A stretch of 37,013 nucleotides of DNA from positions 1 through 37,013 of the forward strand of contig JABMQA010000345.1 of NCBI GenBank assembly GCA_013203545.1, in the 5' to 3' direction. The DNA comes from Bacteroidota bacterium (GTDB lineage Bacteria; Bacteroidota; Bacteroidia; Bacteroidales; 4484-276). Numbering within the stretch: position 1 is the first letter of the stretch; each line of letters opens with the position of its first letter. Positions 1,993 to 32,269 of the stretch are shown here, piece by piece. The translations under genes were made by a program, and so were the position numbers. The notes below the pieces were generated by a model. The model did not search any database, was not told the origin of the DNA, and was given only the letters and a program-made list of their open reading frames with translations.

Positions 1993-1995
1993 TTA

Positions 1996-3210: not shown

Positions 3211-3238
3211 GAAAAATTTCCAAAAAAGAAAATTATTC

Positions 3239-4096
3239 TTAGTAATAATATTCGATTTCCCTTAAGGTAATGGTGGTATTGCCATCTAAATCCTGGGTGA
3301 GAATACTTTCTTCAATTACCTTGTTTTCAACCCTTTTCGTCCAATTTCCTTTATCGTCGTACTCATACTCAAAAGTTGAGGTCATAGCCAGGCGATGGCT
3401 TATGATAAGTTTACAAACTTCAACATCCCCTCTTGAATTATAGGTGAATTTTTTTTTCCAGGATAACTTTCTTTCAGAGTTATAGTATTTTGCCGAAATT
3501 TTCACCCTTCTAAAATCATATCCATATACATATTTACCCGACAAATCCCCGTCAGGCTTAAAATACGCTTCGGTCTGGACATTCCCATTATAACTATTTT
3601 GATAAACAATTTTTGTATAAAGATTCTGGTAATATTTTTCGTACTCAACATCAATGGGATTCCTTTTATCATCGAACATCTTTTGTAAGGATCTGTCGTA
3701 AATTGCCTCAGTAATAAAACCTTTTTGATTCGTCGAATAGGTAACAGGCAGATAAAGTTCACCATTTGCAGTAAAATCCTTTGAACAGCTTTTATGGTTA
3801 TTCTCATCGTATTCATACTTGACGACCGAAAACAACAGGCCTTCTTTGTAAGTATATGTTTCCAATTTATTACCATCAGTATTATAAAATGTGTATTGAT
3901 CCGAGATTATTTGATCATACTGCATATTATCAAAACCACTGGAAACGGAATAAACAATTTCCTTCAGGGATCGAACAGTATCGCTCAACCCCTCCTTTTC
4001 AAGGTCATTTTTACTGCCAAACACCGGAGGTGGGTTTATAAACTCCGCGGCAATAAAAACTTTGATCAAAACCATTAAGCAGAAAAAATTTTTCAT
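3239..4096 (-). CDS. Secreted hypothetical protein with Y/D/E-rich repeats
   Basis: 285 aa with an N-terminal hydrophobic signal. Repeated YxYD-type segments are present (KYEYDENNHKS, TFEYEYDDKGNWTKRV). No confident family call. Confidence 0.6.
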   Translation of the reverse strand: MKNFFCLMVLIKVFIAAEFINPPPVFGSKNDLEKEGLSDTVRSLKEIVYSVSSGFDNMQYDQIISDQYTFYNTDGNKLETYTYKEGLLFSVVKYEYDENNHKSCSKDFTANGELYLPVTYSTNQKGFITEAIYDRSLQKMFDDKRNPIDVEYEKYYQNLYTKIVYQNSYNGNVQTEAYFKPDGDLSGKYVYGYDFRRVKISAKYYNSERKLSWKKKFTYNSRGDVEVCKLIISHRLAMTSTFEYEYDDKGNWTKRVENKVIEESILTQDLDGNTTITLREIEYYY

Positions 4097-5277: not shown

Positions 5278-5739
5278 CTAAAGATTCTCAAGAGCAATTA
5301 AAAATTTATCCGTTACTTTTTGGGCTATTTTTTCAAGCTCAGTGTTCCCAAGCATTTTCATCAAAGCGGAAGGATTCACCATTACTACTTCAATACTTCC
5401 ATTTCCCATTTCTTTAACTAACACTTTACAGGGTAGAAAAAGACCTATGTTTTCTTCAATTTGAAGTGTTTGATAGGCAAAGGAAGGATTGCAGACGCCC
5501 AAAATTTTATATGGTTTCATCTCTACATCCTGCAATTTCTCTTTTAATGTAACATCCATATCAATTTCTGTAATTACTCCAAATCCTTGTTCTTTCAATA
5601 AAGATTTAACTTTACTAGTTACATCCTCAAATGATCCCTTTACAGTTTTATTAAAATAAAACTTTTGGTGTTCTTGAGCTGACAACGATTGTATTGCAAA
5701 TACAATGATTAATAATGAAATGATTTTTAAGTTTTTCAT
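5278..5739 (-). CDS. DUF302 domain protein with signal peptide
   Basis: 153 aa with signal LLIIVFAIQSLSAQ. The core (GFGVITEIDMDVTLKEKL...YKILGVCNP.FAY...LPCKVLV) is collinear with the two other DUF302-like ORFs in the window. Confidence 0.8.
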   Translation of the reverse strand: MKNLKIISLLIIVFAIQSLSAQEHQKFYFNKTVKGSFEDVTSKVKSLLKEQGFGVITEIDMDVTLKEKLQDVEMKPYKILGVCNPSFAYQTLQIEENIGLFLPCKVLVKEMGNGSIEVVMVNPSALMKMLGNTELEKIAQKVTDKFLIALENL

Positions 5740-7052: not shown

Positions 7053-7442
7053 TTAGATGTTTTCAATAACTTTTTCAAGTTTCGACCTTATTTCATTAGC
7101 GATATTCCCCAGGTTTTCATTTCCTATTGCTTGCATAGATGCAACAGGGTCGACAGCTGCAATTTCAATCTGAGTGTCAGATATTTGTTGCACAATGACG
7201 TTGCAGGGCAACATTGTTCCGATTTTATTTTCAGCCTGTAATGCTTTGTATGCAAAAGGAGGATTACAAGCCCCTAATATCCTGTAATTTCTGAAATCAA
7301 CATCCAACTTCTTTTTTAATGTTGCCTGCACGTCAATTTCGGTTAAGATGCCGAAACCTTCTTTTTTCAATTCTTCTGTTACTCTTTCGATGGCTTTATC
7401 GAAAGTTACATTTTCAAGTGTTTTGTTAAAATAATAGTTCAT
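7053..7442 (-). CDS. DUF302 domain protein
   Basis: 129 aa and, by eye, ~60-65% identical to 23136..23522 (GFGILTEIDVQATLKKKLDVDFRNYRILGACNPPFAYKAL...KIGTMLPCNVIVQ). Confidence 0.85.
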   Translation of the reverse strand: MNYYFNKTLENVTFDKAIERVTEELKKEGFGILTEIDVQATLKKKLDVDFRNYRILGACNPPFAYKALQAENKIGTMLPCNVIVQQISDTQIEIAAVDPVASMQAIGNENLGNIANEIRSKLEKVIENI

Positions 7443-11620: not shown

Positions 11621-11971
11621 TTATTCTCCATTCTCCAGGCCTGTTTTTACACGGTATGCTTTTTCAACATCGGAAACGTAAATAATTCCGTCACCGTGAT
11701 TAAGTGTACACCCGTGTTCACAGATTAAACTTGTAATAGTATCAACATCAGCATCTTTTGCCACAATTTCAAGTTTAGCAATTTCACTATCAGTAATCGA
11801 AAATTTTTGTGATACAAAAGCTGTATCGTCCTGAAATTTCCCTGTGCCTTCGGCCATAGAAATAGTCATGTTGTCAAAACCTTCTTCTTTTAAGTGCTGA
11901 ATAATTTTATTCACTTTATTTGGTCGTATAAATGCTTTTATTTCTTTCATGATACTAATTTTAATGGTCAT
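11621..11971 (-). CDS. P-II (GlnB/GlnK-fold) family protein
   Basis: MKEIKAFIRPNKVNKIIQHLKEEGF...GDGIIYVSDVEKAYRVKTGLE is collinear with canonical P-II proteins. The likely true start is Met8 at 11950, 10 nt after the czcB stop, because the longer ORF overlaps czcB by 11 nt. Confidence 0.8.
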   Translation of the reverse strand: MTIKISIMKEIKAFIRPNKVNKIIQHLKEEGFDNMTISMAEGTGKFQDDTAFVSQKFSITDSEIAKLEIVAKDADVDTITSLICEHGCTLNHGDGIIYVSDVEKAYRVKTGLENGE

Positions 11972-13316: not shown

Positions 13317-16300
13317 TTATTTACCTGTTAAATATTTCAATTGGGCAGATAATTCATAATACTCTGCCTGTTGTTTTAAAAAATCCTGTTTAGTATTGAT
13401 AGCCATTTCCATGTTCTGAATAAACTGAACATAGTCAATACTACCAAGACGATACGCCAGATTAGATGCCTGTATTTGCTCATCGGCTAGTGGCAATGCT
13501 TCCTTTTGATAATAGTCGATGACTTGCTGCAATATAAGGTATCGGCTAATTTGTTGATTATATCCGGCTTTTATTTCCAGTTGTTTTTGTTCGTATCGCC
13601 GATTCGCAATTTGGACATCAATTTTTGAAGCCTTTGTTTTGCCGGATTGGGAAAAGAACGCCAATGGAAAAGAGATACCCGCTTCCCAACCATAAAAACC
13701 AGAATTACCATCAACCGATTGCAATTTATATCCCAAGTTTAATTTGGGAAGGAAATTAGACTTTTCTGTTCTCCAAATAGATTCTGCAACATTGATTCCG
13801 GTTGAGTAATAATTTAACAAAGGGCTTCCACTCAAAGAATCGCTGCCAGGAACAATATCAAAAACCTGCTGTTCTAAGTTCTGAATGTTAACATCAAAGA
13901 TCGTCGGTAATAAAAGGTATTGATTTAGAATTTGTAAAGTTGCCAAATAGTTGCTTTCAGCTTTCTTTATATTTACCTGCAATTCTTTGTGCTTGACGGA
14001 TGCAGATAGATATTCTACTTTAGAAGTAGCCTGTGTTTTATATCTTAGTTCGGCAGCCTTCTGAAAATTAGCGTACAAGGTATCAAGTTGTTTGAAAAGC
14101 TGAAATTGTTGTTTGGCATAGACAGCATTGTACCATGCAAAACTAACATCACGGATCAGTGTAAATTCGGTAAGGTTTTGCCCTGATACAGCTTGTTGAG
14201 TACGGGCATTGGCTAATTTGCTTTTTGCTGAAATTCCAAATACATCAATATTCGTCTGTTCAATTCCAATTTTATTTTGAACCCCGGGGAAGTTATTCCC
14301 TACTTCTTCCTTTCCCGTATAAATTGAAGTGCTTCCAAATTCATAAGCCGTAGCTTTTAGTGCTTCTTGTTTGTCAACCTCCAACCGAGCTGCTTTTATA
14401 GAAGGGTATTTTTCTTTAGCCCTTTCCACCGCCAGTTGTAATGTTAGCGATGAATCCTGAGCCTGAGCGTTTCCAGAAAAGCCAAGGCCAACGATTATAA
14501 AAAGCACGGATAGTACAGCTATGGACGGTTTAGGAATTTTTATTCTTTTTCCTTTCGACTCAACAAACTTATAGAGAATAGGTAACACAATCAAGGTAAG
14601 TAAAGTGGATGTAAGCATGCCCCCAATTACAACAGTTGCTAAAGGCCGTTGAACTTCTGCACCTGCGGAAGCTGATACAGCCATCGGCAAAAAGCCCAAA
14701 ATATCGGTTGATGCGGTTAATAAAATTGGTCGGATACGTCGTATAGAGCCCTTTTTAATGATTTCGTTTATGCGGAGCTTGCCTTCAGCTTTTAGTTCAT
14801 TAAATCCACTAATCAACACCAAGCCATTGAGGACTGCGACACCAAACAAGACAATAAAACCTACCCCGGCAGAAATACTAAAAGGCATATCCCTTAAATA
14901 CAATGAAAATACACCACCTACAGCGGCAAATGGTACTGCTACATAAATCATGAGGGTTTGTTTAAACGATTTAACCGCAAAAAATACCAACATGAAAATT
15001 AATGCCAAAGCGAGTGGAACTACAAGAGACAATCTTTTTGAAGCTCTTTGGAGGTTTTCAAAAGCTCCCCCGTACCGAATATAGTAACCCGTAGGTAGTT
15101 CCAGTTTTTCATCTAAAGTTGTTTGGATTTCCTCCACGAGCGACTTAATATCCCTGCCTTCAACATTAATCCCTACATAGGTGCGCCTGTTCGTATTGTC
15201 ACGGCTAATTTGCATCGGCCCTGGCTGATAACTTATTTCAGCAACTTCTTTTAATGGTATTTGATTACCATCAGGAAGATTAACAAACAAGTTTCGGATA
15301 TCGTCAATACTTGTTCGATGTTCTTCGTCCAATCTCACCACAAGGTCGAACATGCGCTCACCTTCGTATATACTTCCGGCAACACCACCACTAAAAGCAG
15401 ATTCAACGATGGTATTTAGCTCTTTAATATTCAAGTTGTATCGACCAAGCTTATTTCTGTCGTAATTAACTGTAATCTGAGGCAATCCTCTTGTGGCTTC
15501 AGCTTTTACGGCTGCAATACCATCAATTTCAGAAATTAGCCCGGCAATTTCTTCTGCTTTATCGGCCAGCATTTCCAAATCATCGCCATATAGTTTAACG
15601 GCAACATCTTGACGAATACCCGTCAACAATTCATTAAAGCGCATTTCAACAGGCTGGGTAAACTCAAAATTGATTCCGGGCAATACACTGACTTTTTCCC
15701 TAACCTTATCAATTAATTCCTTTTTAGATTCGGCTTTTGTCCACTGGTCTTGCGGAGTTAATATCACAAAAATATCAGCAATGTCGATTGGCATAGGATC
15801 CATGGGTAAATCTGCCACCCCAATCCTGCTTTGAATACTTTCTATTTCATCGGGGAAATTCTCTATAACAATTTGCTCCAACCGTGTAGAAGCTTTAGTG
15901 ACTTCGGTTAATGAAGTACCGGGCTTTAAAAACGCCTGAAAAGCAAAATCGCCTTCATCAAGTTTCGGAATAAACTCAGCACCCATCCGTGTAAATAGAA
16001 AACCTCCTGAGATTAATAATGCCAAAGCAATAATAATTACAATAAGGCTTCTTTTAAGTGCCCATTCAATTACAGGACTATATATTTTTTCAAGTTTCCC
16101 AATGATTTTATCTCCCCATGATTTTTTATCTGTTTTAGGCGGCTGAAGAAATAAGGCTGCCATCATTGGTATGTATGTAAGACACAACACTACCACGCCC
16201 AATACGGCAAAACCGAATGTCATAGCCATAGGGATGAACATTTTACCTTCAACACCTTGTAAAGCTAATACGGGTATAAAAACAATCAAAATGATTAGCT

Positions 16301-17657
16301 GACCGAAGAATGCTGAGTTCATCATCTTACTGGCTGAATTAAAGGCTATTTCATTACGTTTTGGCTGGTCAAGCTTGGTGCCTATAAGGTTCTTTCGATG
16401 AAGGTAAAAAATCATACTTTCAACAATAATTACCGCACCATCCACCAATATTCCAAAATCCAACGCTCCTAAACTCATCAGGTTTGCCCAAACCCCAAAC
16501 AACTTCATCATGATAAATGCAAAGAGCAATGCAAGTGGAATTGTTGATGCCACAATTAAACCGCCTCTTAGATTTCCCAGAAATATTACAAGGATAAAAA
16601 TTACTATTAAAGCACCCAACGAAAGGTTTTCGGCAACTGTGGAAGTTGTACTTTTAATGAGTTTACTGCGGTCGAGAAAAGGTTTTATTACAACGCCTTC
16701 GGGCAATGATTTTTGGATTAATGTCATCCGTTCCTTTACTGCCCTAATTACATCGTTGGAGTTTTCCCCTTTCAGCATCATTACAATACCACCAACAGCC
16801 TCACCTTTCCCGTTTTTTGTAAAAGCACCATAACGGACAAAACTACCGTATTTAACTTCTGCCACATCCCTTATAAAAACAGGTTGTCCATCGATGTTTG
16901 CAACTAAAGTATTTTTAATATCATCAATCGACCTCATTAATCCTTCGCCCCTGATAAAATTGGCTTGAAAGTTTTTTTCGATATATGCACCACCGGTATT
17001 CTGATTATTGTCCTTAAGGGTTTCAAATACATCGGATATTGTCAATCCCATGCTCCGAAGTTTATCCGGGTTAATTGCAACTTCGTATTGCTTTCCCCTA
17101 CCACCAAAAGAGTTTACTTCAACAACACCAGGAAGCATTGCCATTTGCCTTTTTACAATCCATTCCTGCATGGTTCGTAATGCCATGTCATCATAAATTG
17201 TATCGTAGCCGGGTTGCACTTCAAGCGTGTATTGATATATTTCGCCTAGTCCTGTACTGATTGGGGCCATGAACGGTTCTCCAAATCCTTCTGGGATTTT
17301 TTCTTTTACCTCTGCTAAGGCTTCACTTACTAATTGCCGGGGTAAATAAGTTCCCGCACTTTCTTTAAAAACAATGGTTACAACAGAAAGCCCGAACCTT
17401 GAGACACTTCGTATTTCAGTAACGTCAGGAAGGTTTGCAACTGCCAATTCAACCTGATACGTTACAAACTGTTCAATGTCTTCTGTACCTAAGTTGGGTG
17501 CTGTTGTAATTACCAAAACCTGATTATTTGTGATATCTGGCATGGCATCAAGCGGCACTTTGGTCATGGAATATATTCCGCCAATAATCAAGCCTATTGT
17601 CATAAGCCCAATTAGTGCCTTGTTCTTTATTGAAAAAGATATTATTTTGTTTATCAT
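13317..17657 (-). CDS. czcA: Heavy-metal RND pump (CzcA-like, divalent-cation type) fused in frame to a TolC/CzcC-like outer membrane factor
   Basis: 1446 aa. Residues 1-~1034 are a full 12-TM RND pump, with TM4 LGALDFGILVDGAVIIVES (the DFG..DGA..VE signature of Zn/Co/Cd HME pumps) and RIRPILLTAS. Residues ~1067-1446 are a TolC-like OMF (two repeats, coiled-coil-rich). The joint is a signal-peptide-like segment, KGKRIKIPKPSIAVLSVLFIIVGLGFSGNAQA/QD. Confidence 0.92.
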   Translation of the reverse strand: MINKIISFSIKNKALIGLMTIGLIIGGIYSMTKVPLDAMPDITNNQVLVITTAPNLGTEDIEQFVTYQVELAVANLPDVTEIRSVSRFGLSVVTIVFKESAGTYLPRQLVSEALAEVKEKIPEGFGEPFMAPISTGLGEIYQYTLEVQPGYDTIYDDMALRTMQEWIVKRQMAMLPGVVEVNSFGGRGKQYEVAINPDKLRSMGLTISDVFETLKDNNQNTGGAYIEKNFQANFIRGEGLMRSIDDIKNTLVANIDGQPVFIRDVAEVKYGSFVRYGAFTKNGKGEAVGGIVMMLKGENSNDVIRAVKERMTLIQKSLPEGVVIKPFLDRSKLIKSTTSTVAENLSLGALIVIFILVIFLGNLRGGLIVASTIPLALLFAFIMMKLFGVWANLMSLGALDFGILVDGAVIIVESMIFYLHRKNLIGTKLDQPKRNEIAFNSASKMMNSAFFGQLIILIVFIPVLALQGVEGKMFIPMAMTFGFAVLGVVVLCLTYIPMMAALFLQPPKTDKKSWGDKIIGKLEKIYSPVIEWALKRSLIVIIIALALLISGGFLFTRMGAEFIPKLDEGDFAFQAFLKPGTSLTEVTKASTRLEQIVIENFPDEIESIQSRIGVADLPMDPMPIDIADIFVILTPQDQWTKAESKKELIDKVREKVSVLPGINFEFTQPVEMRFNELLTGIRQDVAVKLYGDDLEMLADKAEEIAGLISEIDGIAAVKAEATRGLPQITVNYDRNKLGRYNLNIKELNTIVESAFSGGVAGSIYEGERMFDLVVRLDEEHRTSIDDIRNLFVNLPDGNQIPLKEVAEISYQPGPMQISRDNTNRRTYVGINVEGRDIKSLVEEIQTTLDEKLELPTGYYIRYGGAFENLQRASKRLSLVVPLALALIFMLVFFAVKSFKQTLMIYVAVPFAAVGGVFSLYLRDMPFSISAGVGFIVLFGVAVLNGLVLISGFNELKAEGKLRINEIIKKGSIRRIRPILLTASTDILGFLPMAVSASAGAEVQRPLATVVIGGMLTSTLLTLIVLPILYKFVESKGKRIKIPKPSIAVLSVLFIIVGLGFSGNAQAQDSSLTLQLAVERAKEKYPSIKAARLEVDKQEALKATAYEFGSTSIYTGKEEVGNNFPGVQNKIGIEQTNIDVFGISAKSKLANARTQQAVSGQNLTEFTLIRDVSFAWYNAVYAKQQFQLFKQLDTLYANFQKAAELRYKTQATSKVEYLSASVKHKELQVNIKKAESNYLATLQILNQYLLLPTIFDVNIQNLEQQVFDIVPGSDSLSGSPLLNYYSTGINVAESIWRTEKSNFLPKLNLGYKLQSVDGNSGFYGWEAGISFPLAFFSQSGKTKASKIDVQIANRRYEQKQLEIKAGYNQQISRYLILQQVIDYYQKEALPLADEQIQASNLAYRLGSIDYVQFIQNMEMAINTKQDFLKQQAEYYELSAQLKYLTGK

Positions 17658-20373: not shown

Positions 20374-22806
20374 TTATTGAGTTCTTAATCGTAATGCATT
20401 CGAAATTACGGATACTGAGCTAAAGCTCATGGCAGCAGCTGCAATAATAGGACTGAGAAGGATTCCGAAAAACGGGAACAGAATCCCTGCCGCCAAAGGC
20501 ACTCCCAGGGCGTTGTAAACAAAGGCGAAGAATAGGTTTTGCTTAATGTTCCTCATCACTTTTCGGCTTAAATCCCTGGCCCGGACAATCCCATTCAGAT
20601 CGCCTTTCACCAGGGTGATTTCAGCGCTTTGCATGGCAATATCGGTACCAGTACCCATGGCAATCCCCACATTGGCTTGTTCGAGTGCCGGGGCATCATT
20701 TATTCCATCGCCTGCCATGGCAACTACGTGGCCTTGTTCCTGTAGTTCTTTCACCTTTTTATATTTGTCGTCTGGGAGGCAATCGGCCATAAAGCCATCC
20801 AGCCCCAGCTCATTGGCAACCACTTTGGCCGTTAATTGATTGTCGCCAGTTAGCATATGTACTTTCACACCCATTTTTTGCAGAGTTTTAATGGCATCGG
20901 ACGAGGTCTTCTTTATTTTGTCGGAAACACTTACAATACCCTCTATTTTATTTTTGATGATTAAAAACATGACCGTCTGACCTTTCAATTGCCATTCTTG
21001 AGTAAGGTTCTTCTGATCATCGGACAGGGAAGCCTGAAAATCGTTAATTAACCGGTGGTTTCCCAAACCGATTTTTCCACCTTCATAAACTGCCTGTACC
21101 CCTTTGCCGGTTACCGATTCAAATTTATCAAGCTTAAGAAGCTTCTGTTTATTGGCTTTTGCACCGGCCACGATGGCATCAGCCAGCGGATGTTCACTGT
21201 TTGCATCGACAGAAGCCGCCAGTTGCAGAATTTCCAGGTCACTTAGTCTCCCAAATGATTTGAATCCATTCAGGCTTGGTTTTCCTTCGGTGATGGTGCC
21301 GGTTTTATCAATAATGAGGATATCCACTTTATTCATTTCCTCGATGGCACGGGCATCTTTCACCAGTACGCCTGATTGGGCGCCCCGTGCTGTACCCACC
21401 ATAATCGACATGGGAGTCGCCAGTCCCAGGGCACAGGGGCAGGCAATAATTAATACGGCAACAGCATTAACAAAAGCATAAACATAAGCCGGTTCCGGTC
21501 CCCAGATCGCCCAAACGGCAAACGTAATAACCGCAACAGAAATAACAATCTGGACAAAATACTTTGCTACGGTATCGGCCAATTTTTGGATGGGGGCACG
21601 CGAACGGCTTGCCTTGTTTACCATTTCAATGATTTGCGCCAAAAGCGTATCACTGCCCACTTTTTCAGCCTTCATCTCAAACACTGTTTTGCCGTTAATT
21701 GTTCCCCCGGTCACCTTATCATTTTTTGCCTTCTCCACTGGAATAGGTTCACCGGAGATCATGCTTTCGTCAATTACTGCTTCCCCTTTAAAAATGATCC
21801 CGTCAACAGGAATTTTTTCCCCGGGCTTTACTTTTAGCAAGTCACCAACTTTTACTTCTTCCAATGGGATTTCAACTTCCTCGCCATTTCGGATGAGCCT
21901 GGCAATTGGGGGAACCAGCCCCAGCAAGGCTTTAATTGCTGAATTGGTTTTGCTGTGTGCGCGGAGTTCCAAAACCTGGCCGAGCAGCACCAGGGTTAAT
22001 ATCACAGCAGCCGCTTCAAAATAAATATGGACATTGCCACTTCCATCCTGAAACTGGGGTGGAAATATACCCGGCAATAAAAGGGCGACCACACTAAAAA
22101 TATAGGCAGCACCGACGCCAATGGATATTAATGTCCACATGTTTGGCGTCCAACGCACGATTGAGCTCCATCCCCTTCTGAAAAAATCCCAGCTTGAATA
22201 AAACAAAACCGGTGTAGCCAAAACAAACTCAATCCAATTCCATACTTTTTCCGGGGCAATTGATTCAGGATTTAAAAAGGGAATAAATTCTGACATCGCA
22301 ATAATCAAGACCGGCACTGCCAAAATAAGTGCAATCCAGAACTTTTTTGACATCTGTTTATAGGCTTTTTCTTCATCGCTCGTTTCTTCTCCTTTTTCAG
22401 GTACAAGGGTCATCCCGCATTTTGGACAGTCGCCCGGATGGTCTTGCCTGATTTCGGGGTGCATAGGGCAGGTATAAATAACTTTTGCCGAAGGTTTTAC
22501 ACTCTCTTCTTTCTTCAGGTCCATACCGCAAACAGGGCAGTCGCCTGGCTTATCGTAGGTTTTATCGCCCTCACAGTGCATGGGGCAGTAATATTCGCCT
22601 TTCACAGGATGACCTTCATGTTTTCGATGTGATGGTTCGTGCGTGCCAGTTTTATTACCACCGTGGTGATGATGATGCTTCTTCTTCTGTTGGGCCACTG
22701 TTATCAGGTGCATTTTGCATACCGGGCAGTCACCGGGTTTATCATAAGTTTTGTTGCCCTCACATTCCATGGGACAGTAATATTGTTCCTGTTTTTTATT
22801 GTCCAT
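20374..22806 (-). CDS. copA: Cu(I)-translocating P1B-1 ATPase (CopA-type) with three N-terminal HMBD-type Cys4 repeats
   Basis: 810 aa. Core motifs are SGEP, ACPCALGLATP, DKTGTIT, GDGINDAP, YNALGVPLAAG and MSFSSVSVISNALRL (Cu-type TM7/TM8 signatures). The N-terminus has 3x C-P-M-(H/E)...PGDCP-x-C-(G/K)-M plus an HHHHH tract. Confidence 0.95.
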   Translation of the reverse strand: MDNKKQEQYYCPMECEGNKTYDKPGDCPVCKMHLITVAQQKKKHHHHHGGNKTGTHEPSHRKHEGHPVKGEYYCPMHCEGDKTYDKPGDCPVCGMDLKKEESVKPSAKVIYTCPMHPEIRQDHPGDCPKCGMTLVPEKGEETSDEEKAYKQMSKKFWIALILAVPVLIIAMSEFIPFLNPESIAPEKVWNWIEFVLATPVLFYSSWDFFRRGWSSIVRWTPNMWTLISIGVGAAYIFSVVALLLPGIFPPQFQDGSGNVHIYFEAAAVILTLVLLGQVLELRAHSKTNSAIKALLGLVPPIARLIRNGEEVEIPLEEVKVGDLLKVKPGEKIPVDGIIFKGEAVIDESMISGEPIPVEKAKNDKVTGGTINGKTVFEMKAEKVGSDTLLAQIIEMVNKASRSRAPIQKLADTVAKYFVQIVISVAVITFAVWAIWGPEPAYVYAFVNAVAVLIIACPCALGLATPMSIMVGTARGAQSGVLVKDARAIEEMNKVDILIIDKTGTITEGKPSLNGFKSFGRLSDLEILQLAASVDANSEHPLADAIVAGAKANKQKLLKLDKFESVTGKGVQAVYEGGKIGLGNHRLINDFQASLSDDQKNLTQEWQLKGQTVMFLIIKNKIEGIVSVSDKIKKTSSDAIKTLQKMGVKVHMLTGDNQLTAKVVANELGLDGFMADCLPDDKYKKVKELQEQGHVVAMAGDGINDAPALEQANVGIAMGTGTDIAMQSAEITLVKGDLNGIVRARDLSRKVMRNIKQNLFFAFVYNALGVPLAAGILFPFFGILLSPIIAAAAMSFSSVSVISNALRLRTQ

Positions 22807-23135: not shown

Positions 23136-23522
23136 TTATAAGGTGGCAATAACCCTCTCGAGTTTTTCTTTTATTTCTGTGGCAATTCCTGCAAGGCCAG
23201 GGTTTTCAATTGCCATCATAGAGGCAGCCGGGTCTATAGCCGCAACTTCAATTTCATTGTTTTCCAATTCCTGAACGATTACGCTGCAAGGGAGCATAGT
23301 TCCAATCTTGTCTTCCTGCTGTAATGCTTTGTATGCATAAGCAGGATTACAGGCTCCCAGAATTTTGTATTTTCGGAAATCAACATTCAGTTTTTCTTTC
23401 AGTTTTTCCTGAATGTCTATTTCAGTAAGTACTCCAAACCCTTCTACTTTCAACGATTCGGTTACAAGCTGAACAGCTTGCTCAAAATCCATACTGATTT
23501 TTTTATTGAGGTAATATTTCAT
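23136..23522 (-). CDS. DUF302 domain protein
   Basis: 128 aa, a close paralog of 7053..7442 (GFGVLTEIDIQEKLKEKLNVDFRKYKILGACNPAYAYKAL...KIGTMLPCSVIVQ). Confidence 0.85.
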   Translation of the reverse strand: MKYYLNKKISMDFEQAVQLVTESLKVEGFGVLTEIDIQEKLKEKLNVDFRKYKILGACNPAYAYKALQQEDKIGTMLPCSVIVQELENNEIEVAAIDPAASMMAIENPGLAGIATEIKEKLERVIATL

Positions 23523-23533
23523 GATTGTTAATT

Positions 23534-24037
23534 TTAGTGTTGGTGATGATGTTCTTTATTTCCTGATTGGTTTTCCGCATCCATCATTTTCATTTTACCA
23601 TCCGGTCCCATCATACCCTTGTCTTTCATTTTTTGCATGCACATTTGCATCATCCGGGGATGTTCGGTCATCATGTCTGCCATTTTGTTGCGCATTGTAG
23701 AATCCTGCTCAGACATATCCATCATATTGCCCATCATTTTTTGCATCATTTCAGGATTATCCTTCATCATGCCCATCATCTGATGTTCATCTTTCATTTC
23801 CATTTTTCCATCATTCCCCATCATTTGTTGGTTTTCTTTCATCATCATCATGGCATGTTCGTTACCTTTCATTGATTTCATGAAGTCCGTCATAAGCACA
23901 TGATCGTTTAAAATAGTGTTGAAAATCTCAGTCCGTGTTTCCGGCTTATCGAGAAGCCCTTTGATATCTACATTTTGACTATAACCATTGAAAGTCAGTA
24001 GTACTAGCATTGAAAATAAAATTGCAAGTGTTTTCAT
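23534..24037 (-). CDS. Secreted Met-rich (about 39 Met in 167 aa by hand count) protein with His-rich C-terminus
   Basis: Signal peptide LVLLTFNGYSQ is followed by runs such as HAMMMMKENQQMMG, HQMMGMMKDNPEMMQKMMGNMMDM and RMMQMCMQKM. The protein ends KEHHHQH. Confidence 0.75.
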   Translation of the reverse strand: MKTLAILFSMLVLLTFNGYSQNVDIKGLLDKPETRTEIFNTILNDHVLMTDFMKSMKGNEHAMMMMKENQQMMGNDGKMEMKDEHQMMGMMKDNPEMMQKMMGNMMDMSEQDSTMRNKMADMMTEHPRMMQMCMQKMKDKGMMGPDGKMKMMDAENQSGNKEHHHQH

Positions 24038-24177: not shown

Positions 24178-24789
24178 TTAGACATTATCAATTGATTTTA
24201 GTTTTTGATCTCCCAGCTTTTTAAAATATGAAGGCGTAAACCCGGTTATTCTTTTAAATTGGCCTGATAAGTGCGCCACACTGCTATAGCCCATGTCAAA
24301 TGCAATTTCGCTGAGTGTTTTTTCATCATAAACCAGCAGTTCTTTCACGCGTTCTATTTTCAGGTTGATCATATGCTTTTCTATTGTTGTGCCCTCCACC
24401 GAGGAATAAAGCGAGCTTAAGTAATTATAATCAAGAAGTAGCTTGTCAGAAAGATAGTCTGAGAAATTAACCTTAATTTGCTCCGGATGATGATATACAA
24501 ATTCGATTGTGATTTTTCTAATCTGCTCGATCAACCGGCTTTTACTATCATTAATGATCTCAAAACCTACTTTATTTAACCGGATTTCGAGGTTTTCATG
24601 TTTTTCCTGATCAATGGGTGTATCAATTATAACTTTTCCCATTTCCACCCGGGCATTTGCGATTCCCACATCACTGAATATTTCGGAGACCACCAGAATG
24701 CACCGGTTACATACCATGTTTTTAATGTAAATATGTTTTTGTTTATCCAGAGGGTGTGTTTTTTTCTTTTCCATGTCTATTCTTTTCAT
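24178..24789 (-). CDS. AraC-family regulator with N-terminal HMA-like CxxC domain
   Basis: 203 aa. The N-terminus reads IYIKNMVCNRCILVV...LNKVGFEI (HMA-like fold with C-x2-C). The C-terminal AraC HTH reads LSEIAFDMGYSSVAHLSGQFKRITGFTPSYF. The start overlaps the upstream stop (TAATG). Confidence 0.85.
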   Translation of the reverse strand: MKRIDMEKKKTHPLDKQKHIYIKNMVCNRCILVVSEIFSDVGIANARVEMGKVIIDTPIDQEKHENLEIRLNKVGFEIINDSKSRLIEQIRKITIEFVYHHPEQIKVNFSDYLSDKLLLDYNYLSSLYSSVEGTTIEKHMINLKIERVKELLVYDEKTLSEIAFDMGYSSVAHLSGQFKRITGFTPSYFKKLGDQKLKSIDNV

Positions 24790-25901
24790 TAGATTTTTTT
24801 ATTCATGTCTATAAGGAATTTCCGAACTGCCAGGGCTGCTTTCGCCCCTTCCCCGGACGCAATAATTATCCTTTTGCCAAATACATTGGTAACGTCGCCT
24901 GCAGCAAAAATACCCGGGTACGATGTGGAACAATCCTGATTAATAATTATTTCGCCTTTTTCATTTAAATCAACATATTTAAAAACCAAGGAAGTATCAG
25001 GACGGAGGCCAATGGCAACAAAAGCTCCTGAAACAGGCAATTTATTTGTTTCCTTATCACCTTTCTTTCGAATTTGGACTGCCGTTAAAATCTTATTTCC
25101 AATAAATTTTTCAACTTTATATTCCTCAAAAATTTCAAGGTTACTTAATGTCCTTATCCGTTCAATAATTATTGCATCTCCAGTAAGAATAGTATCTGAA
25201 ACAAGAAATACCTTTTTAGTAATTTTATGAAGATTTTCTACCATTTGCAGTGCGGAATTTCCCCCGCCTATGATAACCACATTTTTATTTTGGACGTACG
25301 ACATATCCTGAATGTTTCCGTAAAAAAGCCCTTTTCGTTGAAATTTTTCTTCTCCAGGCACATTCAGTTCCCGTCTCTTCATCCCACTCGCAATCAAAAT
25401 AGTCTTTGTGAAAAACTTTTTCCTTTTGGAGGTAATAACCATAAATCCTTTATTCTCAATTGGAATTATCAATTCAACCTCGCATAATAGATGATCGATA
25501 TAGTGTGAATTTAAAAGTTGATAATGAAACTTTTGTATTAATTCCGGGCCGGTAATAAAATCAAATCCCATGTAATTTTCAATTTTCGTGCTATCAATCG
25601 CCTGGCCACCGAGATTATCGGTAATTAAAAAAGCTTTCATCCGTAAAATTGAAGCATATACACAAGCTGTTAAGCCGGCTGGCCCACCGCCAATTATTAT
25701 TAAATCACTTGGTTCGGATTCATCAGATGCTGTATTTGATCTTTTGTTTTGAAATTTGTTTTTACACCCTTCAGAACAAAAATAAAACTCAGTTTCATCT
25801 AATTTTAAAACAATGGCATGCTCTTTATCGATTGCCATATTACAAATTGGATCAATTACTTTATTATTTCCTGGTTTCATTGGTCTGTGTTTTTCTAACA
25901 A
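24789..25901 (-). CDS. YHS-domain::thioredoxin-reductase-like FAD/NAD(P)H flavoprotein lacking the redox-active CxxC
   Basis: 370 aa. Residues 17-50 (DPICNMAID...EFYFCSEGCKNKF) form a YHS domain. The flavoprotein part has LIIIGGGPAGLTA (FAD), VVIIGGGNSALQ (NAD(P)H) and GIFAAGDV. The position of the TrxB CATC reads YGNIQD. Confidence 0.85.
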   Translation of the reverse strand: MLEKHRPMKPGNNKVIDPICNMAIDKEHAIVLKLDETEFYFCSEGCKNKFQNKRSNTASDESEPSDLIIIGGGPAGLTACVYASILRMKAFLITDNLGGQAIDSTKIENYMGFDFITGPELIQKFHYQLLNSHYIDHLLCEVELIIPIENKGFMVITSKRKKFFTKTILIASGMKRRELNVPGEEKFQRKGLFYGNIQDMSYVQNKNVVIIGGGNSALQMVENLHKITKKVFLVSDTILTGDAIIIERIRTLSNLEIFEEYKVEKFIGNKILTAVQIRKKGDKETNKLPVSGAFVAIGLRPDTSLVFKYVDLNEKGEIIINQDCSTSYPGIFAAGDVTNVFGKRIIIASGEGAKAALAVRKFLIDMNKKI

Positions 25902-25908
25902 TAGAAAT

Positions 25909-26184
25909 TTAATGTTTTCTCGCTGAAAGATTATAAATAGCTGCTATACTGGCTCCTATTATCCCACTTATAATGAAAGTCTCTGCTATTCCTATCATTG
26001 CTTCCCACCAGGGAATATTCATACGAATGATAGAAGATGTATCAAGCCCGTGCAACAGGTTGTTAAAAACCTGTACGGTTCCTTCGCGGCCTACGGTGGC
26101 CATTAGGATTATACATCCAAGGTAAAGAAGCGCGCCGGTTAAACCGAAGGCCAATCCAAAACGTTTAATGTTGATGGTTTTCAT
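25909..26184 (-). CDS. Small 2-3 TM membrane protein, DUF5676-like
   Basis: 91 aa (MKTINIKRFGLAFGLTGALLYLGCIILM...IGIAETFIISGIIGASIAAIY). Its start overlaps the upstream NDH-2-like stop by 20 nt. The family name is recalled, not verified. Confidence 0.6.
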   Translation of the reverse strand: MKTINIKRFGLAFGLTGALLYLGCIILMATVGREGTVQVFNNLLHGLDTSSIIRMNIPWWEAMIGIAETFIISGIIGASIAAIYNLSARKH

Positions 26185-27556
26185 GATTTTCTGTTTTTAA
26201 GGTTTTATTATCTGTATTTTTATGTTCATGGTTTTGTTCTTTATACCTGCGGATGATTACCCGGTCTCCTTTATCGTATGTGAAATAGCTCCACATCCAG
26301 TTAACTGCAATCACCAATTTATTTCGCATGCCCATAATACTCATCAGGTGAACAGCGGACCAGATAACCCAGGCAAAAAAACCAGCGAACTCCCTACCAT
26401 AAATACTGGCAACAGCTTTCTTTTTCCCAACTGCAGCAAGCGATCCTTTGTCGAGATAAATAAAGGGAATTAATGGTTCTCTTTGGATAAGCCTCAATAG
26501 GTTTTCAGCCAGGTTTTTGCCTTGTTGAATAGCAGGTTGTGCAACCATTGGATGACCATTAGGAAATGTTGTTGTTGGCATTTGTGCGACATCGCCAATG
26601 GCAAACACATTATCTATGGGTGAAACCCTGTTAAATTCATCAACTACAATACGTGATTGTTTATTAACTGCTGCCGAAGGAATTCCGTCGATAACAGCGC
26701 CCTTAACACCTGCAGTCCAAATAAAAGCTGCTGTTTCCAGCGTTTTCCCATTATTAAGTGTAACTGTTTTTCCATCGAACGATCTTACCAGGGTACTTAA
26801 TAAAACATCAACTTTCATTTTGGTGAGATAATGCAACGTTTTTTTCGATAATGTTTCAGGCATTCCTGAAAGAAGACGATCAGTTCCTTCTATCAAAAAA
26901 ATTTTCATCTCAACATTTTTCAGTTCCGGGTAATCTTTTCTGAAAATATATCTCTTGAACTCGGCCAATGCCCCGGCCATCTCAACACCTGCCGACCCAC
27001 CCCCAACAATAGCAACACTGCTCAGTATTTCTTTTTCTTCCTGAATACAGGTTATCGCCGCTTTTTCAAGGTTTTGAAGGAGTTTGCTCCTGATGTCCAG
27101 TGCATCTGTTACCGATTTTAACCTCAGTCCAAACCGTTCAAATCCACCATTTCCAAAAAAATTATTTGTGCTGCCGCCGGCAACCACCAGATAGTTATAG
27201 TCGATGTAACCAATACTGGTGTCAACCCTGTTATTATCGGTGTCAATACCGGTAACTTCGGCCATTCGGAAAATTACATTTTCATATTTTTCGAATATCT
27301 TCCTGAATGGGAAAACAATGCTGTCGGGTTCGGTGCCGCTGGTTGCAACCAGATAAAGCAATGGCAAAAATTGATGAAAATTGTTTTTATCAATCAACAC
27401 GACCTGAACAGGCTTATTTTTCAATACCTTAACCAGGTTTAAACCGGCAAATCCGCCTCCCACAACAACAATTCTGGGAAGATCAGAATCCGGCACACAG
27501 ATGTGCCCTTTTTCGAAACAGTTTATTTTATCGCAGCATTGCATTTCTTCAATCAA
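26165..27556 (-). CDS. Type II NADH:quinone oxidoreductase (NDH-2)-like flavoprotein with Cys-rich N-terminal and His-rich C-terminal extensions
   Basis: 463 aa with two dinucleotide folds (RIVVVGGGFAGL; VAIVGGGSAGVEMAG), IGDVA, and an NDH-2-type C-terminal amphipathic region (FFAWVIWSAVHLMSIMGMRNK). The N-terminus reads MIEEMQCCDKINCFEKGHICV and the C-terminus reads QNHEHKNTDNKTLKTENHENHQH. Confidence 0.88.
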   Translation of the reverse strand: MIEEMQCCDKINCFEKGHICVPDSDLPRIVVVGGGFAGLNLVKVLKNKPVQVVLIDKNNFHQFLPLLYLVATSGTEPDSIVFPFRKIFEKYENVIFRMAEVTGIDTDNNRVDTSIGYIDYNYLVVAGGSTNNFFGNGGFERFGLRLKSVTDALDIRSKLLQNLEKAAITCIQEEKEILSSVAIVGGGSAGVEMAGALAEFKRYIFRKDYPELKNVEMKIFLIEGTDRLLSGMPETLSKKTLHYLTKMKVDVLLSTLVRSFDGKTVTLNNGKTLETAAFIWTAGVKGAVIDGIPSAAVNKQSRIVVDEFNRVSPIDNVFAIGDVAQMPTTTFPNGHPMVAQPAIQQGKNLAENLLRLIQREPLIPFIYLDKGSLAAVGKKKAVASIYGREFAGFFAWVIWSAVHLMSIMGMRNKLVIAVNWMWSYFTYDKGDRVIIRRYKEQNHEHKNTDNKTLKTENHENHQH

Positions 27557-27580: not shown

Positions 27581-27922
27581 TTAAATAGCCAATATCCCAC
27601 TCTCGTCAGTTCTCACCTTATACACTTCATCCACGGGGGAAATAATAATCATCCCGTCGCCCCGGTAACCCGTGCGGCCGTTTTTCCTGATAATTTCAAT
27701 TATGCTGGAAACATGTTCCTCAGCTACAAGGATCTCCAGTTTAATTACCCTGTATGCATCTGCAAAGGGATATTTGTCACTAATGTGGTCTTTTTCATGA
27801 TCAGAGTACTGGCCGGTGCCTTCGCATTCCACCATGGTCATACAACAGAAGCCGTTTTCTTTTAATGCTTTATAGACTTCATCAATTTTTCTGTGCCTGA
27901 TGTAAGCTTTTATCAGTTTCAT
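27581..27922 (-). CDS. P-II (GlnB/GlnK-fold) family protein, paralog of 11621..11971
   Basis: 113 aa. MKLIKAYIRHRKIDEVYKALKENGF...GDGMIIISPVDEVYKVRTDE is collinear with P-II. The T-loop region is replaced by the His/Asp-rich GTGQYSDHEKDHISDKYPFADAY. Confidence 0.8.
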   Translation of the reverse strand: MKLIKAYIRHRKIDEVYKALKENGFCCMTMVECEGTGQYSDHEKDHISDKYPFADAYRVIKLEILVAEEHVSSIIEIIRKNGRTGYRGDGMIIISPVDEVYKVRTDESGILAI

Positions 27923-29901: not shown

Positions 29902-30528
29902 TTACTGTAAATCTGTTACAAAATCCTGGAATTGATTTACATTATTTTTGGTTTTCAGCAATTTATCCAGCCCAAGCCGTTTATTTTTCTGAATCTTTTT
30001 AAAATGTGTCGGCGTCAGACCGGTAATTTTTTTGAATTGATTCGACAGGTACTGGACACTACTATAGTCTAATTGAATTGCGATTTCGCTCAACGACAAT
30101 TCATCGTAGACCAAAAGTTCTTTTGCCCTTTCAATTTTTTGCAGAATCAAATATTTCTCAATTGTTATTCCTTCAGTGGATGAGAACAGGCTACTGATGT
30201 AAGAATAATCGTTTCCAACTTGACGAGATAAAAAGTCCGAAAAATTAATGTTCTCACGTACCCCAACACCATAGTGAACTGCCTTTATGATTTCAGTCTT
30301 GATCTTGGAGATTATTCTGCTTTTTTTATCACTCAGTAATTCAAATCCATTAGCCTCAAGACTGAGTTTAATTGAATCGAGATCTTTTTCATCAATTGTT
30401 GAACCCAATTCTACTTTGCCCAATTCAATTGATTTAATGGTAAACCCCAGCTTTGTCAATTCCTCGTTTACAACTTTTATACACCGATTGCAAACCATAT
30501 TTTTAATATGTAATTCTTCATATGACAT
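29902..30528 (-). CDS. AraC-family regulator with N-terminal HMA-like CxxC domain (paralog of 24178..24789)
   Basis: 208 aa with LHIKNMVCNRCIKVV...LEANGFEL and an AraC HTH (LSEIAIQLDYSSVQYLSNQFKKITGLTPTHF). Confidence 0.85.
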   Translation of the reverse strand: MSYEELHIKNMVCNRCIKVVNEELTKLGFTIKSIELGKVELGSTIDEKDLDSIKLSLEANGFELLSDKKSRIISKIKTEIIKAVHYGVGVRENINFSDFLSRQVGNDYSYISSLFSSTEGITIEKYLILQKIERAKELLVYDELSLSEIAIQLDYSSVQYLSNQFKKITGLTPTHFKKIQKNKRLGLDKLLKTKNNVNQFQDFVTDLQ

Positions 30529-30547: not shown

Positions 30548-32269
30548 TTATTCTTTGATAATCTTTTTAGTATAGGTCTTGTTAGCTGAGAATAGACTAA
30601 GGATAAAAGTTCCCTGGCCTAAGGTCGTAAGGTCAATCAGTATCTGCTTATTATTTATTTCAAATCGTCGCTCAATAAGTTTATGTCCGGCCAGATCGTA
30701 GAATTTGTACCCTTCAAAAACGATGTCGTCGCTGGTAACTGTTAAGGTATTATTGCTCTCCATTAACGGATTTGGATACAAAATAATGTCGTCTGGATCA
30801 AGGTTATTCTCCCCAATTCCAATTGTCTCATCAACCACTTCAAACTGCCCCATCATGCCGTCGTCTTCGTGGGTGAGCATATGGCAATGGTACATGTAAG
30901 GTACATCATCGTTGGCATAATCGGTAAATTGCATGATCACCCTTGCCGATTGCATTGCCGGTACCAGGATCACATCTTTCCTGCCCTGCTCGCTTGCAGG
31001 CGGTGGCGCTCCATTTCTATCCAAAACATAAAAATGAACATCATGAATGTGAAAAGGATGGGCAGTTGGCGATTGATTGGTAAGTGTCCAAATTTCAATG
31101 TTGTTCAAAGGAATTGAATAATTAATGGTGTTCATATCAAAGCTGACACTATTGATATAGAATTTCCCATTCAATGCATTCGGGCCCATTGCCTCGGCTG
31201 TAAAAGTCAGTGTTCTTGTGATATTGGCTGAAGATTCGGGCAGGGAGTTTATTTCGACAAGGCTGCTTGGAATGGTGGTAACCGGATTGCTGGTGGGTGC
31301 AACCACATTTAATTCCATAATATCGAAATTTGATCCGTTCATCGGATTTGGATTGTAACCTGTAAGGGTCATCATCGACATCATACCGGGCAAGGTTGCG
31401 CCATACATTCCGTTTGGCAACTCAGCAGCATAGCTTTTCAGGTTCAGTGTTTGCCCCTGCATTCCTGAAAAATCAATAAGTATTTCAGCCCGTTCGCCCG
31501 GGGCCATCCGTGACCTTGTAACAGCATTGGGTTCGCTTAATAATCCATCGTCCGAACCAATTTGATAAAAAGTCTGGTTGCCGGATAAGCCAATATTAAA
31601 TACCCGTTGAGAGGAACCATTCAACAGCCTCAAACGAACAACCTGGGCCGGCACATCAAGTTTAGGATCGATGGTGGCGTTTACCATTAACACATCGTCA
31701 GAATTGGAAGGGACAACAATCTGGTTGGAAGCATCAAAATCTTTGGTTTGGATAACCAGGGGGAAATCATCAACACCGTAAGTCCTGGGCAATTCCAATG
31801 CCGCTTCATCTTCATCTCGTACTATGATAAAACCGGCAATCCCTTTGGAGACATGTAAATTGGTTTTTTCATGCAAATGGGGATGATACCAGTAGGTAGC
31901 TGCCCTGTCCATCACAGTAAAGGAAGGGTTCCACGAGTTGGAAGGCGCGATGATAGTGTGTGGGCCGCCATCATTTTCGGCTGAAACGTGCATTCCATGC
32001 CAGTGAATTGTAGTGGTGTCATTAAGTAGGTTATTTACTGTGATGTCAACAAATTCAGCTTTTTGCATGATCAGTGTGGGGCCGAGAATATTGCCGTTTA
32101 CACCCATTGTGTTTGTGGCCTGGCCACCATAAAATTGGACAGTCCCATTTTGAAGGTTAAGTTCAAAAGTTGTTCCCGACAGGGTATCTGGAATGATTAT
32201 ATCATTCTGCGCTGTCAGATACGTAAAAAAGAAAATTGATACAAGTGTCATTAATGTTTTACTTTTCAT
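30548..32269 (-). CDS. Multicopper oxidase with T9SS C-terminal sorting domain
   Basis: 573 aa with signal peptide FFFTYLTAQ. The four MCO copper motifs are IHWHGMH, WYHPHLH, HPFHIHDVHF and HCHMLTHEDDGMM. The last ~80 aa (ILYPNPLMESNNTLTV...GTFILSLFSANKTYTKKIIKE) fit the Por-secretion-tail pattern. Confidence 0.93.
   Translation of the reverse strand: MKSKTLMTLVSIFFFTYLTAQNDIIIPDTLSGTTFELNLQNGTVQFYGGQATNTMGVNGNILGPTLIMQKAEFVDITVNNLLNDTTTIHWHGMHVSAENDGGPHTIIAPSNSWNPSFTVMDRAATYWYHPHLHEKTNLHVSKGIAGFIIVRDEDEAALELPRTYGVDDFPLVIQTKDFDASNQIVVPSNSDDVLMVNATIDPKLDVPAQVVRLRLLNGSSQRVFNIGLSGNQTFYQIGSDDGLLSEPNAVTRSRMAPGERAEILIDFSGMQGQTLNLKSYAAELPNGMYGATLPGMMSMMTLTGYNPNPMNGSNFDIMELNVVAPTSNPVTTIPSSLVEINSLPESSANITRTLTFTAEAMGPNALNGKFYINSVSFDMNTINYSIPLNNIEIWTLTNQSPTAHPFHIHDVHFYVLDRNGAPPPASEQGRKDVILVPAMQSARVIMQFTDYANDDVPYMYHCHMLTHEDDGMMGQFEVVDETIGIGENNLDPDDIILYPNPLMESNNTLTVTSDDIVFEGYKFYDLAGHKLIERRFEINNKQILIDLTTLGQGTFILSLFSANKTYTKKIIKE

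Follow-up and report, generated by a model that had tools for sequence, protein, structure and literature searches.

A YHS domain fused to a TrxR-like flavoprotein

The window analysed here is a stretch of 37,013 nucleotides from a Bacteroidota bacterium of the order Bacteroidales (GenBank assembly GCA_013203545.1, contig JABMQA010000345.1, positions 1 to 37,013), and its minus strand encodes a protein in which a YHS metal-binding domain is joined by a tether to a flavoprotein of the thioredoxin reductase (TrxR) type that has lost the catalytic CxxC motif. The open reading frame (24789..25901, minus strand) gives 370 residues from a TTG start. An ATG at position 25880 is the start in homologues and in an identical database protein (P0001; 100% identity, 363 residues; public name 'FAD-dependent oxidoreductase'). 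We place the coding sequence at 24789..25880 (minus strand; 363 residues from this ATG) and use the 363-residue numbering throughout.

The gene lies in a run that reads P-II, NDH-2-like, DUF5676, YHS-flavoprotein, AraC and, further on, CopA. Directly upstream is a gene for a DUF5676 protein with two transmembrane segments (25909..26184, minus strand), a recurrent neighbour of the family, preceded by genes for an NDH-2-like flavoprotein (26165..27556, minus strand; two genes upstream), which recurs with the family in Bacteroidales, and for a P-II family protein (27581..27922, minus strand), which recurs in other phyla as well. The next gene downstream encodes an AraC-family regulator with a CopZ/HMA-like N-terminal domain that contains the sequence NMVCNRC (24178..24789, minus strand). 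As noted in the initial annotation of the locus, the flavoprotein stop codon (24791..24789) and the ATG of the regulator gene (24789..24787) share one nucleotide in the sequence TAATG. A P1B-1 copper ATPase with a CPC motif and three HMBD domains is encoded co-directionally 2 kb downstream (20374..22806, minus strand). Our best reading of the fusion protein, offered tentatively, is that it may act as an NADH-dependent, flavin-only metal reductase-chaperone that reduces Cu(II) to Cu(I) for export.

The YHS domain and its tether

The YHS (TRASH-type) metal-binding domain comprises residues 8–45 (25746..25859, minus strand), with D10, C13, C35 and C39, and perhaps M15, as candidate ligands. The YHS segment reads DPICNMAIDKEHAIVLKLDETEFYFCSEGCKNKF (nucleotides about 25752..25853) and matches the Pfam YHS model (PF04945) with an E-value of 5e-6 and 26.8 bits, slightly below the gathering score of 30.3. 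The assignment, made in the initial annotation from the sequence pattern, is supported by the conservation of the relevant residues across homologues. A homologue search over 5.8 billion proteins returned at least 120 clusters with 58–86% identity, and the candidate ligands are conserved in 115–120 of the 120 homologues compared: D10 and C13 are present in 115, the remaining five having gaps at these positions, and M15, F34, C35, S36, G38, C39 and F43 are present in all 120. The YHS signature of one Asp and three Cys residues (DPxC ... FCSxxC) is thereby complete in D10, C13, C35 and C39. A PF04945 match is also precomputed for 119 of the 120 homologues, the exception being one N-terminally truncated entry. 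When the YHS profile was compared with the PDB, only phenol hydroxylase and eL24 matched, and no solved copper-bound YHS structure was found. In the YHS domain of the Mycobacterium phlei adenylyl cyclase, one Asp and three Cys residues are the proposed ligands and the response is specific to copper (PMC4626032).

The tether between the YHS and FAD domains (25707..25745, minus strand) is of constant length, with 18 residues between F43 and the GxGPxG motif in 112 of 120 homologues. An additional pair of Cys residues covaries between the YHS hairpin (position 27 or 17) and the tether (position 49) in 84 of the 120 members (Fisher p 7e-18, uncorrected for phylogeny); among the six members in which C49 stands without C27, five have a Cys at position 17 instead. 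The window protein has L27, N49 and I17 at the respective columns and, like 26 other members (27/120 in all), lacks the pair. Because it is absent from the window protein, the pair is not part of the core chemistry of the family; members that carry it could gain from it a disulfide or an additional site. A displaced redox Cys pair is thus absent from the window protein, in keeping with the initial annotation, and is less firmly excluded for the 84 relatives with the extra pair.

These Cys residues bear on a role in thiol/disulfide maintenance, in which the flavin would reduce Cys residues of the YHS domain (C35-x3-C39 and the extra pair) and these in turn would keep the copper-binding Cys residues of chaperones or ATPases reduced. 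The relatives of the protein are disulfide relays with an N-terminal thiol domain, and the covarying pair in 84 of 120 members would suit such a relay, but it is missing in the window protein and in 27 of 120 members overall. Moreover, three conserved Cys residues together with an Asp and a Met form a metal-ligand pattern and not a CxxC redox motif, and we know of no low-molecular-mass TrxR-type enzyme that reduces the disulfide of another domain without a CxxC of its own. We therefore regard thiol maintenance as distinctly unlikely and retain the metal reductase-chaperone as our working interpretation.

The flavoprotein body lacks the redox disulfide

Residues 59–337 match Pyr_redox_2 with an E-value of 4e-33. 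The body contains the FAD-binding motif GGGPAG (residues 64–69; 25674..25691, minus strand), the pyridine-nucleotide-binding motif GGGNSA (residues 205–210; 25251..25268, minus strand) and the AAGD flavin motif, which is followed by G335-K-R337-IIIASGEGAKAA (24834..24905, minus strand). All three motifs are conserved across the 120 homologues, and because the FAD and NAD(P)H motifs are invariant the protein is predicted to be a working oxidoreductase. A search of solved structures gave AhpF as the top match (1hyu, E-value 1.5e-46), followed by TrxRs at about 1e-40, and the body is closest to AhpF and to glutaredoxin-fused TrxR-like proteins (E-value 1e-46). AhpF was aligned only over its residues 200–516; its N-terminal double thioredoxin fold, which contains a CxxC, was not matched. 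An AlphaFold2 model built with the 120 homologues (predicted local distance difference test score 83.4, predicted template modelling (TM) score 0.70) was assigned the AhpF/TrxR fold by Foldseek, the best matches being TrxRs in the flavin-reducing (FR) conformation with TM scores of up to 0.82. The TrxR-like fold and motifs described in the initial annotation, and with them the architecture of a metal-binding domain plus a pyridine-nucleotide flavoprotein, are thus borne out by profile, structure and model comparisons.

No curated NCBIfam model covers the family. The score against the thioredoxin reductase model (TIGR01292) is 237.7 bits, short of the cut-off of 343.45, and that against the AhpF model (TIGR03140) is 235.5 bits, short of the cut-off of 502.9, while the MerA model (TIGR02053) gives 59.8 bits against a cut-off of 454.45 and matches residues 159–357 only.

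The redox-active disulfide of TrxR and AhpF is missing. Both the AhpF segment 'kgvtyCphCdgplf' and the E. coli TrxB segment 'GVSACATCDGFF' align to 'GLFYGNIQDMSY' (nucleotides 25296..25331); the TrxB sequence used for this comparison agrees with PDB 1cl0. In the alignment the CATC of TrxB is paired with GNIQ, such that G188 and Q191 replace both Cys residues within the former disulfide site G184-LFYGNIQ-D192 (25305..25331, minus strand). Y187 and D192, the latter at the position of the acid-base Asp, are retained. The CxxC motif is absent in all 120 homologues, in which F-Y-G-N-[IV]-Q-D is near-invariant (G188 in 119/120, Q191 in 118/120). The loss of the body disulfide, claimed in the initial annotation and checked here by alignment with TrxB and AhpF, is therefore a family-wide property and not a local defect. 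With the cofactor sites intact and the dithiol gone, electrons would thus leave from the flavin itself.

The body has no conserved Cys except C317 ('DCSTS', invariant in the 120 close homologues). We considered C317 as a hidden catalytic Cys and rejected it, since it is shared by AhpF and by many relatives that contain CxxC and is lacking in the distant YHS members P0121 and P0123. Most homologues have Ala in place of C73 of the window protein.

By pairwise alignment, S228-D229-T230 (25191..25199, minus strand) occupies the 2'-phosphate site that is formed by H-R-R in TrxB; the Ser is found in 114 and the Asp in 86 of 120 homologues. Because the NADPH motif of TrxB (HRRxxxR) is in this way aligned to S-D-T, NADH is probably preferred over NADPH.

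TrxR-like ferredoxin-NADP reductases (FNRs) also lack CxxC, and the initial annotation had likened the chemistry of the window protein to theirs. Homology to these enzymes is detectable but far more remote (6gar and 3lzw, E-values of 1e-21 to 1e-24): residues 4–307 of the 332 residues of 3lzw were aligned (E-value 4e-21), and the window protein ends there, without the C-terminal extension of about 25 residues. The likeness thus stands as an analogy of flavin chemistry without CxxC and fails as a statement of descent, since the body is closest to AhpF and the FNR extension is missing. The same comparison bears on the idea that the protein is a generic electron donor, a ferredoxin/flavodoxin-type reductase serving another enzyme, in which the YHS domain would hold Fe or a structural Zn in the manner of a rubredoxin or zinc ribbon. 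That homologous FNRs do without CxxC, and that the YHS-like site of phenol hydroxylase is not a copper-trafficking site, would be compatible with this idea; the much closer kinship to AhpF and TrxR, the missing extension and a gene context of copper export, with no redox enzyme in need of a donor, make it improbable. A flavin that reduces a metal ion on the YHS domain remains the reading that we prefer.

Extent and descent of the family

All of the clusters except the truncated entry carry both YHS and Pyr_redox_2, and the source names among them include Nitrospirota, Thermodesulfovibrionia, Bacteroidales and Planctomycetota. In a scan of one genome per species, relatives were found in 163 of 185,579 species. 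The 80 loci listed all derive from metagenome-assembled genomes or environmental bacteria, mostly Nitrospirota and Thermodesulfobacteriota, with Bacteroidales, Stahlbacteria, Gammaproteobacteria and Spirochaetia as minor hosts. Thus the survey of frequency and context suggested with the initial annotation reveals a family of at least 120 clusters. Public annotations of its members disagree and are partly wrong, including alkyl hydroperoxide reductase subunit F, NADH-dependent peroxiredoxin subunit F, thioredoxin-disulfide reductase and NADH dehydrogenase.

An exhaustive search of representative sequences added distant full-length YHS fusions with 38–51% identity, none of which has CxxC; at the former disulfide site they read GVFYGNVQD, GVSHSAVQD, GVAYRLVHE, VVSFSVVQD or GVLEYHDLL. 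The next-best proteins are TrxR/AhpF-like, have no YHS domain and keep CxxC in 115 of 132 cases; at the N-terminus, several have a glutaredoxin-like CPxC domain or the N-terminal part of AhpF. In a simple neighbour-joining tree of the flavoprotein region, calculated without support values, the YHS-fused proteins group together in a single clade, and none of its 45 tips has CxxC. This points to a single origin of the fusion. As most of the non-fused relatives keep the motif, acquisition of the YHS domain coincides with disappearance of the disulfide. Because the nearest relatives tether a thiol carrier at their N-terminus, the YHS domain stands in the slot of the internal electron acceptor of the module.

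Twelve residues are invariant in the family and rare in relatives (D96, K99, M104, D107, F108, H130, M167, R182, Q191, Q212, G335 and R337). Several of them probably lie in the loops and at the helix start that surround the isoalloxazine in TrxR structures. At the positions of G335 and R337, relatives have an aromatic residue and Gln, the Gln being present in 127 of 128 sequences. An Arg in place of this Gln would presumably favour an anionic reduced flavin and one-electron chemistry.

Literature searches on a YHS-reductase fusion and on TrxR-like ferric reductases found nothing relevant. The fusion is thus covered by no curated family model, solved structure or paper that we found.

Copper genes around family members

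Neighbouring genes were counted from our own open-reading-frame calls and BLAST clustering, and the counts depend on these. A P1B ATPase gene is found within the fetched flanks (about 10 kb) in 52 of the 80 loci; of the 35 loci that span 15 kb or more, 29 contain one. In 47 of the 52 loci it lies on the same strand as the flavoprotein gene; the median gap is 2.6 kb, and in 15 loci the two are within 1 kb of each other. We estimate that proximity by chance would account for a few per cent at most, because a flank of ±10 kb is less than 1% of a typical genome holding a few such pumps. About 45 of 57 P1B ATPases show CPC, the motif of pumps for Cu(I)/Ag(I), and CPH is present in four; the pump N-termini carry YHS in 25 and HMBD in 29 of 63 cases. 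In nine loci annotated with Pfam, the neighbours comprise P1B ATPases with YHS or HMBD N-termini, CusABC-like resistance-nodulation-division (RND) pumps, CsoR and multicopper oxidases, together with YtkA, P-II, DUF5676, ICMT-family methyltransferases, small YHS proteins and HMA proteins. Genes for histidine kinases and regulators also lie nearby frequently. The link to copper pumps extends to a relative with 43% identity (locus L090); downstream of it (L090 3837-6200) lies a gene for a CPH-type P1B ATPase, which combines a YHS domain with an extended His-rich stretch and for which no Pfam hit is recorded.

The gene context thus strongly supports the metal link that the initial annotation had guessed and narrows the metal to copper or silver, and copper would be the metal of the YHS domain. 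If the enzyme instead reduced a different metal or metalloid (for instance Hg(II), Au(III), Ag(I), Fe(III), tellurite or chromate), the copper context would have to be incidental to multi-metal islands. The window is indeed a metal island on one strand, with two RND systems, a cation diffusion facilitator transporter, a second P1B ATPase and a Fur-like regulator; CPC-type pumps export Ag(I) too, and ArsR-type regulators occur in some loci. Against this, mer, ars or tellurite genes are not recurrent among the neighbours of the family, and those neighbours that do recur are copper-specific (CsoR, multicopper oxidases, CusABC-like pumps and CPC/CPH ATPases). We thus give another metal little chance and keep to Cu(II) as the likelier substrate of a reductase.

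YHS domains in the same loci are also joined to other enzymes. In eight loci (including L069 5725-7647, L087 7111-9033, L063 and L082), a YHS domain is fused to an alpha-glucan-phosphorylase-like protein encoded beside the family member, and in L090 (713-2608) one is fused to a phosphoenolpyruvate (PEP)-utilising enzyme. The distant member P0131 adjoins a phosphorylase gene (L091). These fusions may link copper sensing to carbon metabolism.

Such fusions bring up the main rival of the reductase-chaperone, a copper-gated flavoenzyme in which the YHS domain would be an allosteric copper sensor that controls NADH oxidation, with a quinone, O2, free metal ions or a partner protein as acceptor. The YHS domain of the M. 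phlei cyclase activates the enzyme upon copper (PMC4626032), the domain recurs on the glucan-phosphorylase-like and PEP-utilising enzymes, and histidine kinases and regulators are common in the neighbourhood, all of which would be in line with a sensor. Gating leaves unexplained, however, why CxxC was lost exactly where YHS was gained and why YHS sits in the tethered electron-acceptor slot of the relatives, and the gene context offers no candidate second substrate. We consider the copper-gated enzyme rather unlikely and continue to prefer a YHS domain that takes part in metal reduction.

Regulatory genes and further features of the window

Pfam detects no HMA domain in the AraC-family regulator encoded at 24178-24789, although profile methods do so, with a probability of 94.7% and an E-value of 6e-8 in hhalign and matches to CopZ structures at an E-value of 9e-5. 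We therefore set aside a verdict of 'no HMA domain' drawn from Pfam alone, and the label of an HMA-AraC regulator in the initial annotation is retained. The flavoprotein gene is predicted to be translationally coupled to this regulator gene, and the same gene pair is found in the Bacteroidales loci L004, L009 and L010. A second AraC regulator with a CopZ/HMA-like N-terminus (NMVCNRC), also missed by Pfam, is encoded at 29902-30528 (minus strand). Both AraC regulators of the window are probably copper-sensing. On the minus strand between 22806 and 27922, a promoter/terminator scan showed no terminator-like site, its counts being at the level of shuffled sequence and otherwise uninformative.

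The NDH-2-like protein encoded upstream is rich in Cys at its N-terminus (MQCCDKINCFEKGHIC) and rich in His in its C-terminal tail, and its gene overlaps the DUF5676 gene by 20 nucleotides. Downstream of the AraC regulator, positions 23534-24037 (minus strand) encode a secreted Met/His-rich protein with MMxxM repeats and an HHHQH tail; it has no Pfam match, and Met-rich proteins resembling it were found in 25 related loci. A multicopper oxidase with a type IX secretion (T9SS, Por_Secre_tail) sorting domain is encoded at 30548-32269 (minus strand), and a polypeptide of 1446 residues that combines a complete RND pump (ACR_tran) with an outer-membrane-factor (OEP) domain is encoded at 13317-17657 (minus strand). 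The metal island further contains three DUF302 paralogues (23136-23522, 5278-5739 and 7053-7442) and two P-II family genes, the one described above and another at 11621-11971. Four consecutive open reading frames of 241-404 residues at 91-4096 (minus strand) have no Pfam match.

A possible NADH-dependent Cu(II) reductase-chaperone

Taken together, the data suggest an FAD flavoprotein, probably NADH-preferring, that would act in copper (or silver) detoxification. In the mechanism that we propose, the TrxR/AhpF-type body would take hydride from the nicotinamide, and the flavin, with no dithiol to receive the electrons, would donate them directly to a metal ion that is held by, or handed to, the tethered YHS domain with its Asp, three Cys and Met15. 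This step would convert Cu(II) to Cu(I); acting next as a chaperone, the YHS domain would hand the Cu(I) on to the P1B-1 ATPase encoded nearby, at its metal-binding domains. We favour an NADH:Cu(II) reductase-chaperone because the YHS domain is in the acceptor slot, its ligand set is of the copper type and the genes around it are those of Cu(I) export. In its most specific form, as a dedicated cytoplasmic, MerA-like NADH:Cu(II) oxidoreductase-chaperone that generates Cu(I) on the YHS domain it carries and delivers this Cu(I) to P1B ATPases, the proposal is doubtful, with the preference for NADH, the electron transfer from flavin to metal and the hand-over to the pump each being presumed steps.

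Several observations weigh against the reductase-chaperone. Most hosts are anaerobes (Thermodesulfovibrionia and Thermodesulfobacteriota), in which cytoplasmic Cu(II) should be scarce, and copper genes are missing around one distant member (38% identity). The presence of YHS domains, within the loci of the family, on the unrelated glucan phosphorylase and PEP-utilising enzyme would suit a sensor as well as a carrier of the substrate. The sole solved YHS-like site found is that of phenol hydroxylase, which is not a copper protein and whose site binds a structural zinc. Finally, the flavin loop of the AlphaFold2 model is of low confidence, and no biochemical or genetic data on any member were found in the literature. 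The observation made in the initial annotation is confirmed and its interpretation is partly supported.

Cu(I)-specific pumps and chaperones require reduced copper. A review of copper homeostasis in bacteria states that virtually no specific cupric reductase of the bacterial cytoplasm is known; the Cu(II) reductases that it lists are CcoG, the unspecific activity of NDH-2 or quinol and a single CopZ of the Fe-S type from an archaeon (PMC7558416). If our reading is true, the family would supply both a specific bacterial cupric reductase and an electron donor, which reviews list as unknown. A soluble enzyme with its own NADH site, flavin and copper-binding domain, belonging to a copA-linked family in more than 100 species, would make the Cu(II) reduction step directly testable. 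It would also represent a third way of rebuilding the TrxR scaffold for disulfide-free chemistry, and the current database names (AhpF, thioredoxin reductase, NADH dehydrogenase) would be corrected.

Comparison with known systems

The closest systems in sequence and structure are TrxB and the C-terminal module of AhpF, which share the two-domain FAD/NAD(P)H fold and its motifs with the window protein and provide its best matches; AhpF likewise has an N-terminal domain on a tether. In contrast to both, the window protein has neither CxxC (G188 and Q191 instead) nor HRR, and a YHS domain takes the place of an N-terminal thioredoxin fold. The YumC-type FNRs likewise combine a TrxR fold without CxxC with flavin-only chemistry, but they are distant, have a C-terminal extension over the flavin and carry no metal-binding domain.

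With MerA, the window protein has in common the logic of a tethered N-terminal metal-binding domain on an NAD(P)H flavoprotein within a metal-resistance operon. MerA differs in that it belongs to the class I subfamily with a dimerisation domain, has an HMA N-terminus and keeps a redox-active Cys pair (CxxxxC) at the flavin and a C-terminal Cys pair, all of which the window protein lacks. The MerA analogy drawn in the initial annotation therefore stands for functional logic and not for kinship, as the score of the MerA model also indicates.

The Archaeoglobus fulgidus CopZ, in which an Fe-S/Zn domain is joined to an HMA chaperone, is the precedent named in the review for a cytoplasmic cupric reductase; it reduces cytosolic Cu(II) for CopA with an unknown electron donor (PMC7558416). 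It likewise couples a redox module to a copper-binding chaperone domain, but does so with a [2Fe-2S] centre and HMA, whereas the window protein has a flavin, its own NAD(P)H site and YHS. Cu(II) is also reduced in bacteria by CcoG, an Fe-S protein of the membrane that serves oxidase assembly, and by E. coli NDH-2, whose cupric reductase activity is unspecific (PMC7558416); in neither is a dedicated copper-binding domain fused to a flavoprotein. The M. phlei adenylyl cyclase has the same small YHS domain with one Asp and three Cys residues, which there regulates the cyclase, whereas in the window protein the domain is attached to a redox enzyme, for which it may carry the substrate. The window protein thus lacks the defining features of TrxR, AhpF, MerA and YumC-type FNR, while it shares its fold with TrxR and AhpF and its design logic with MerA.

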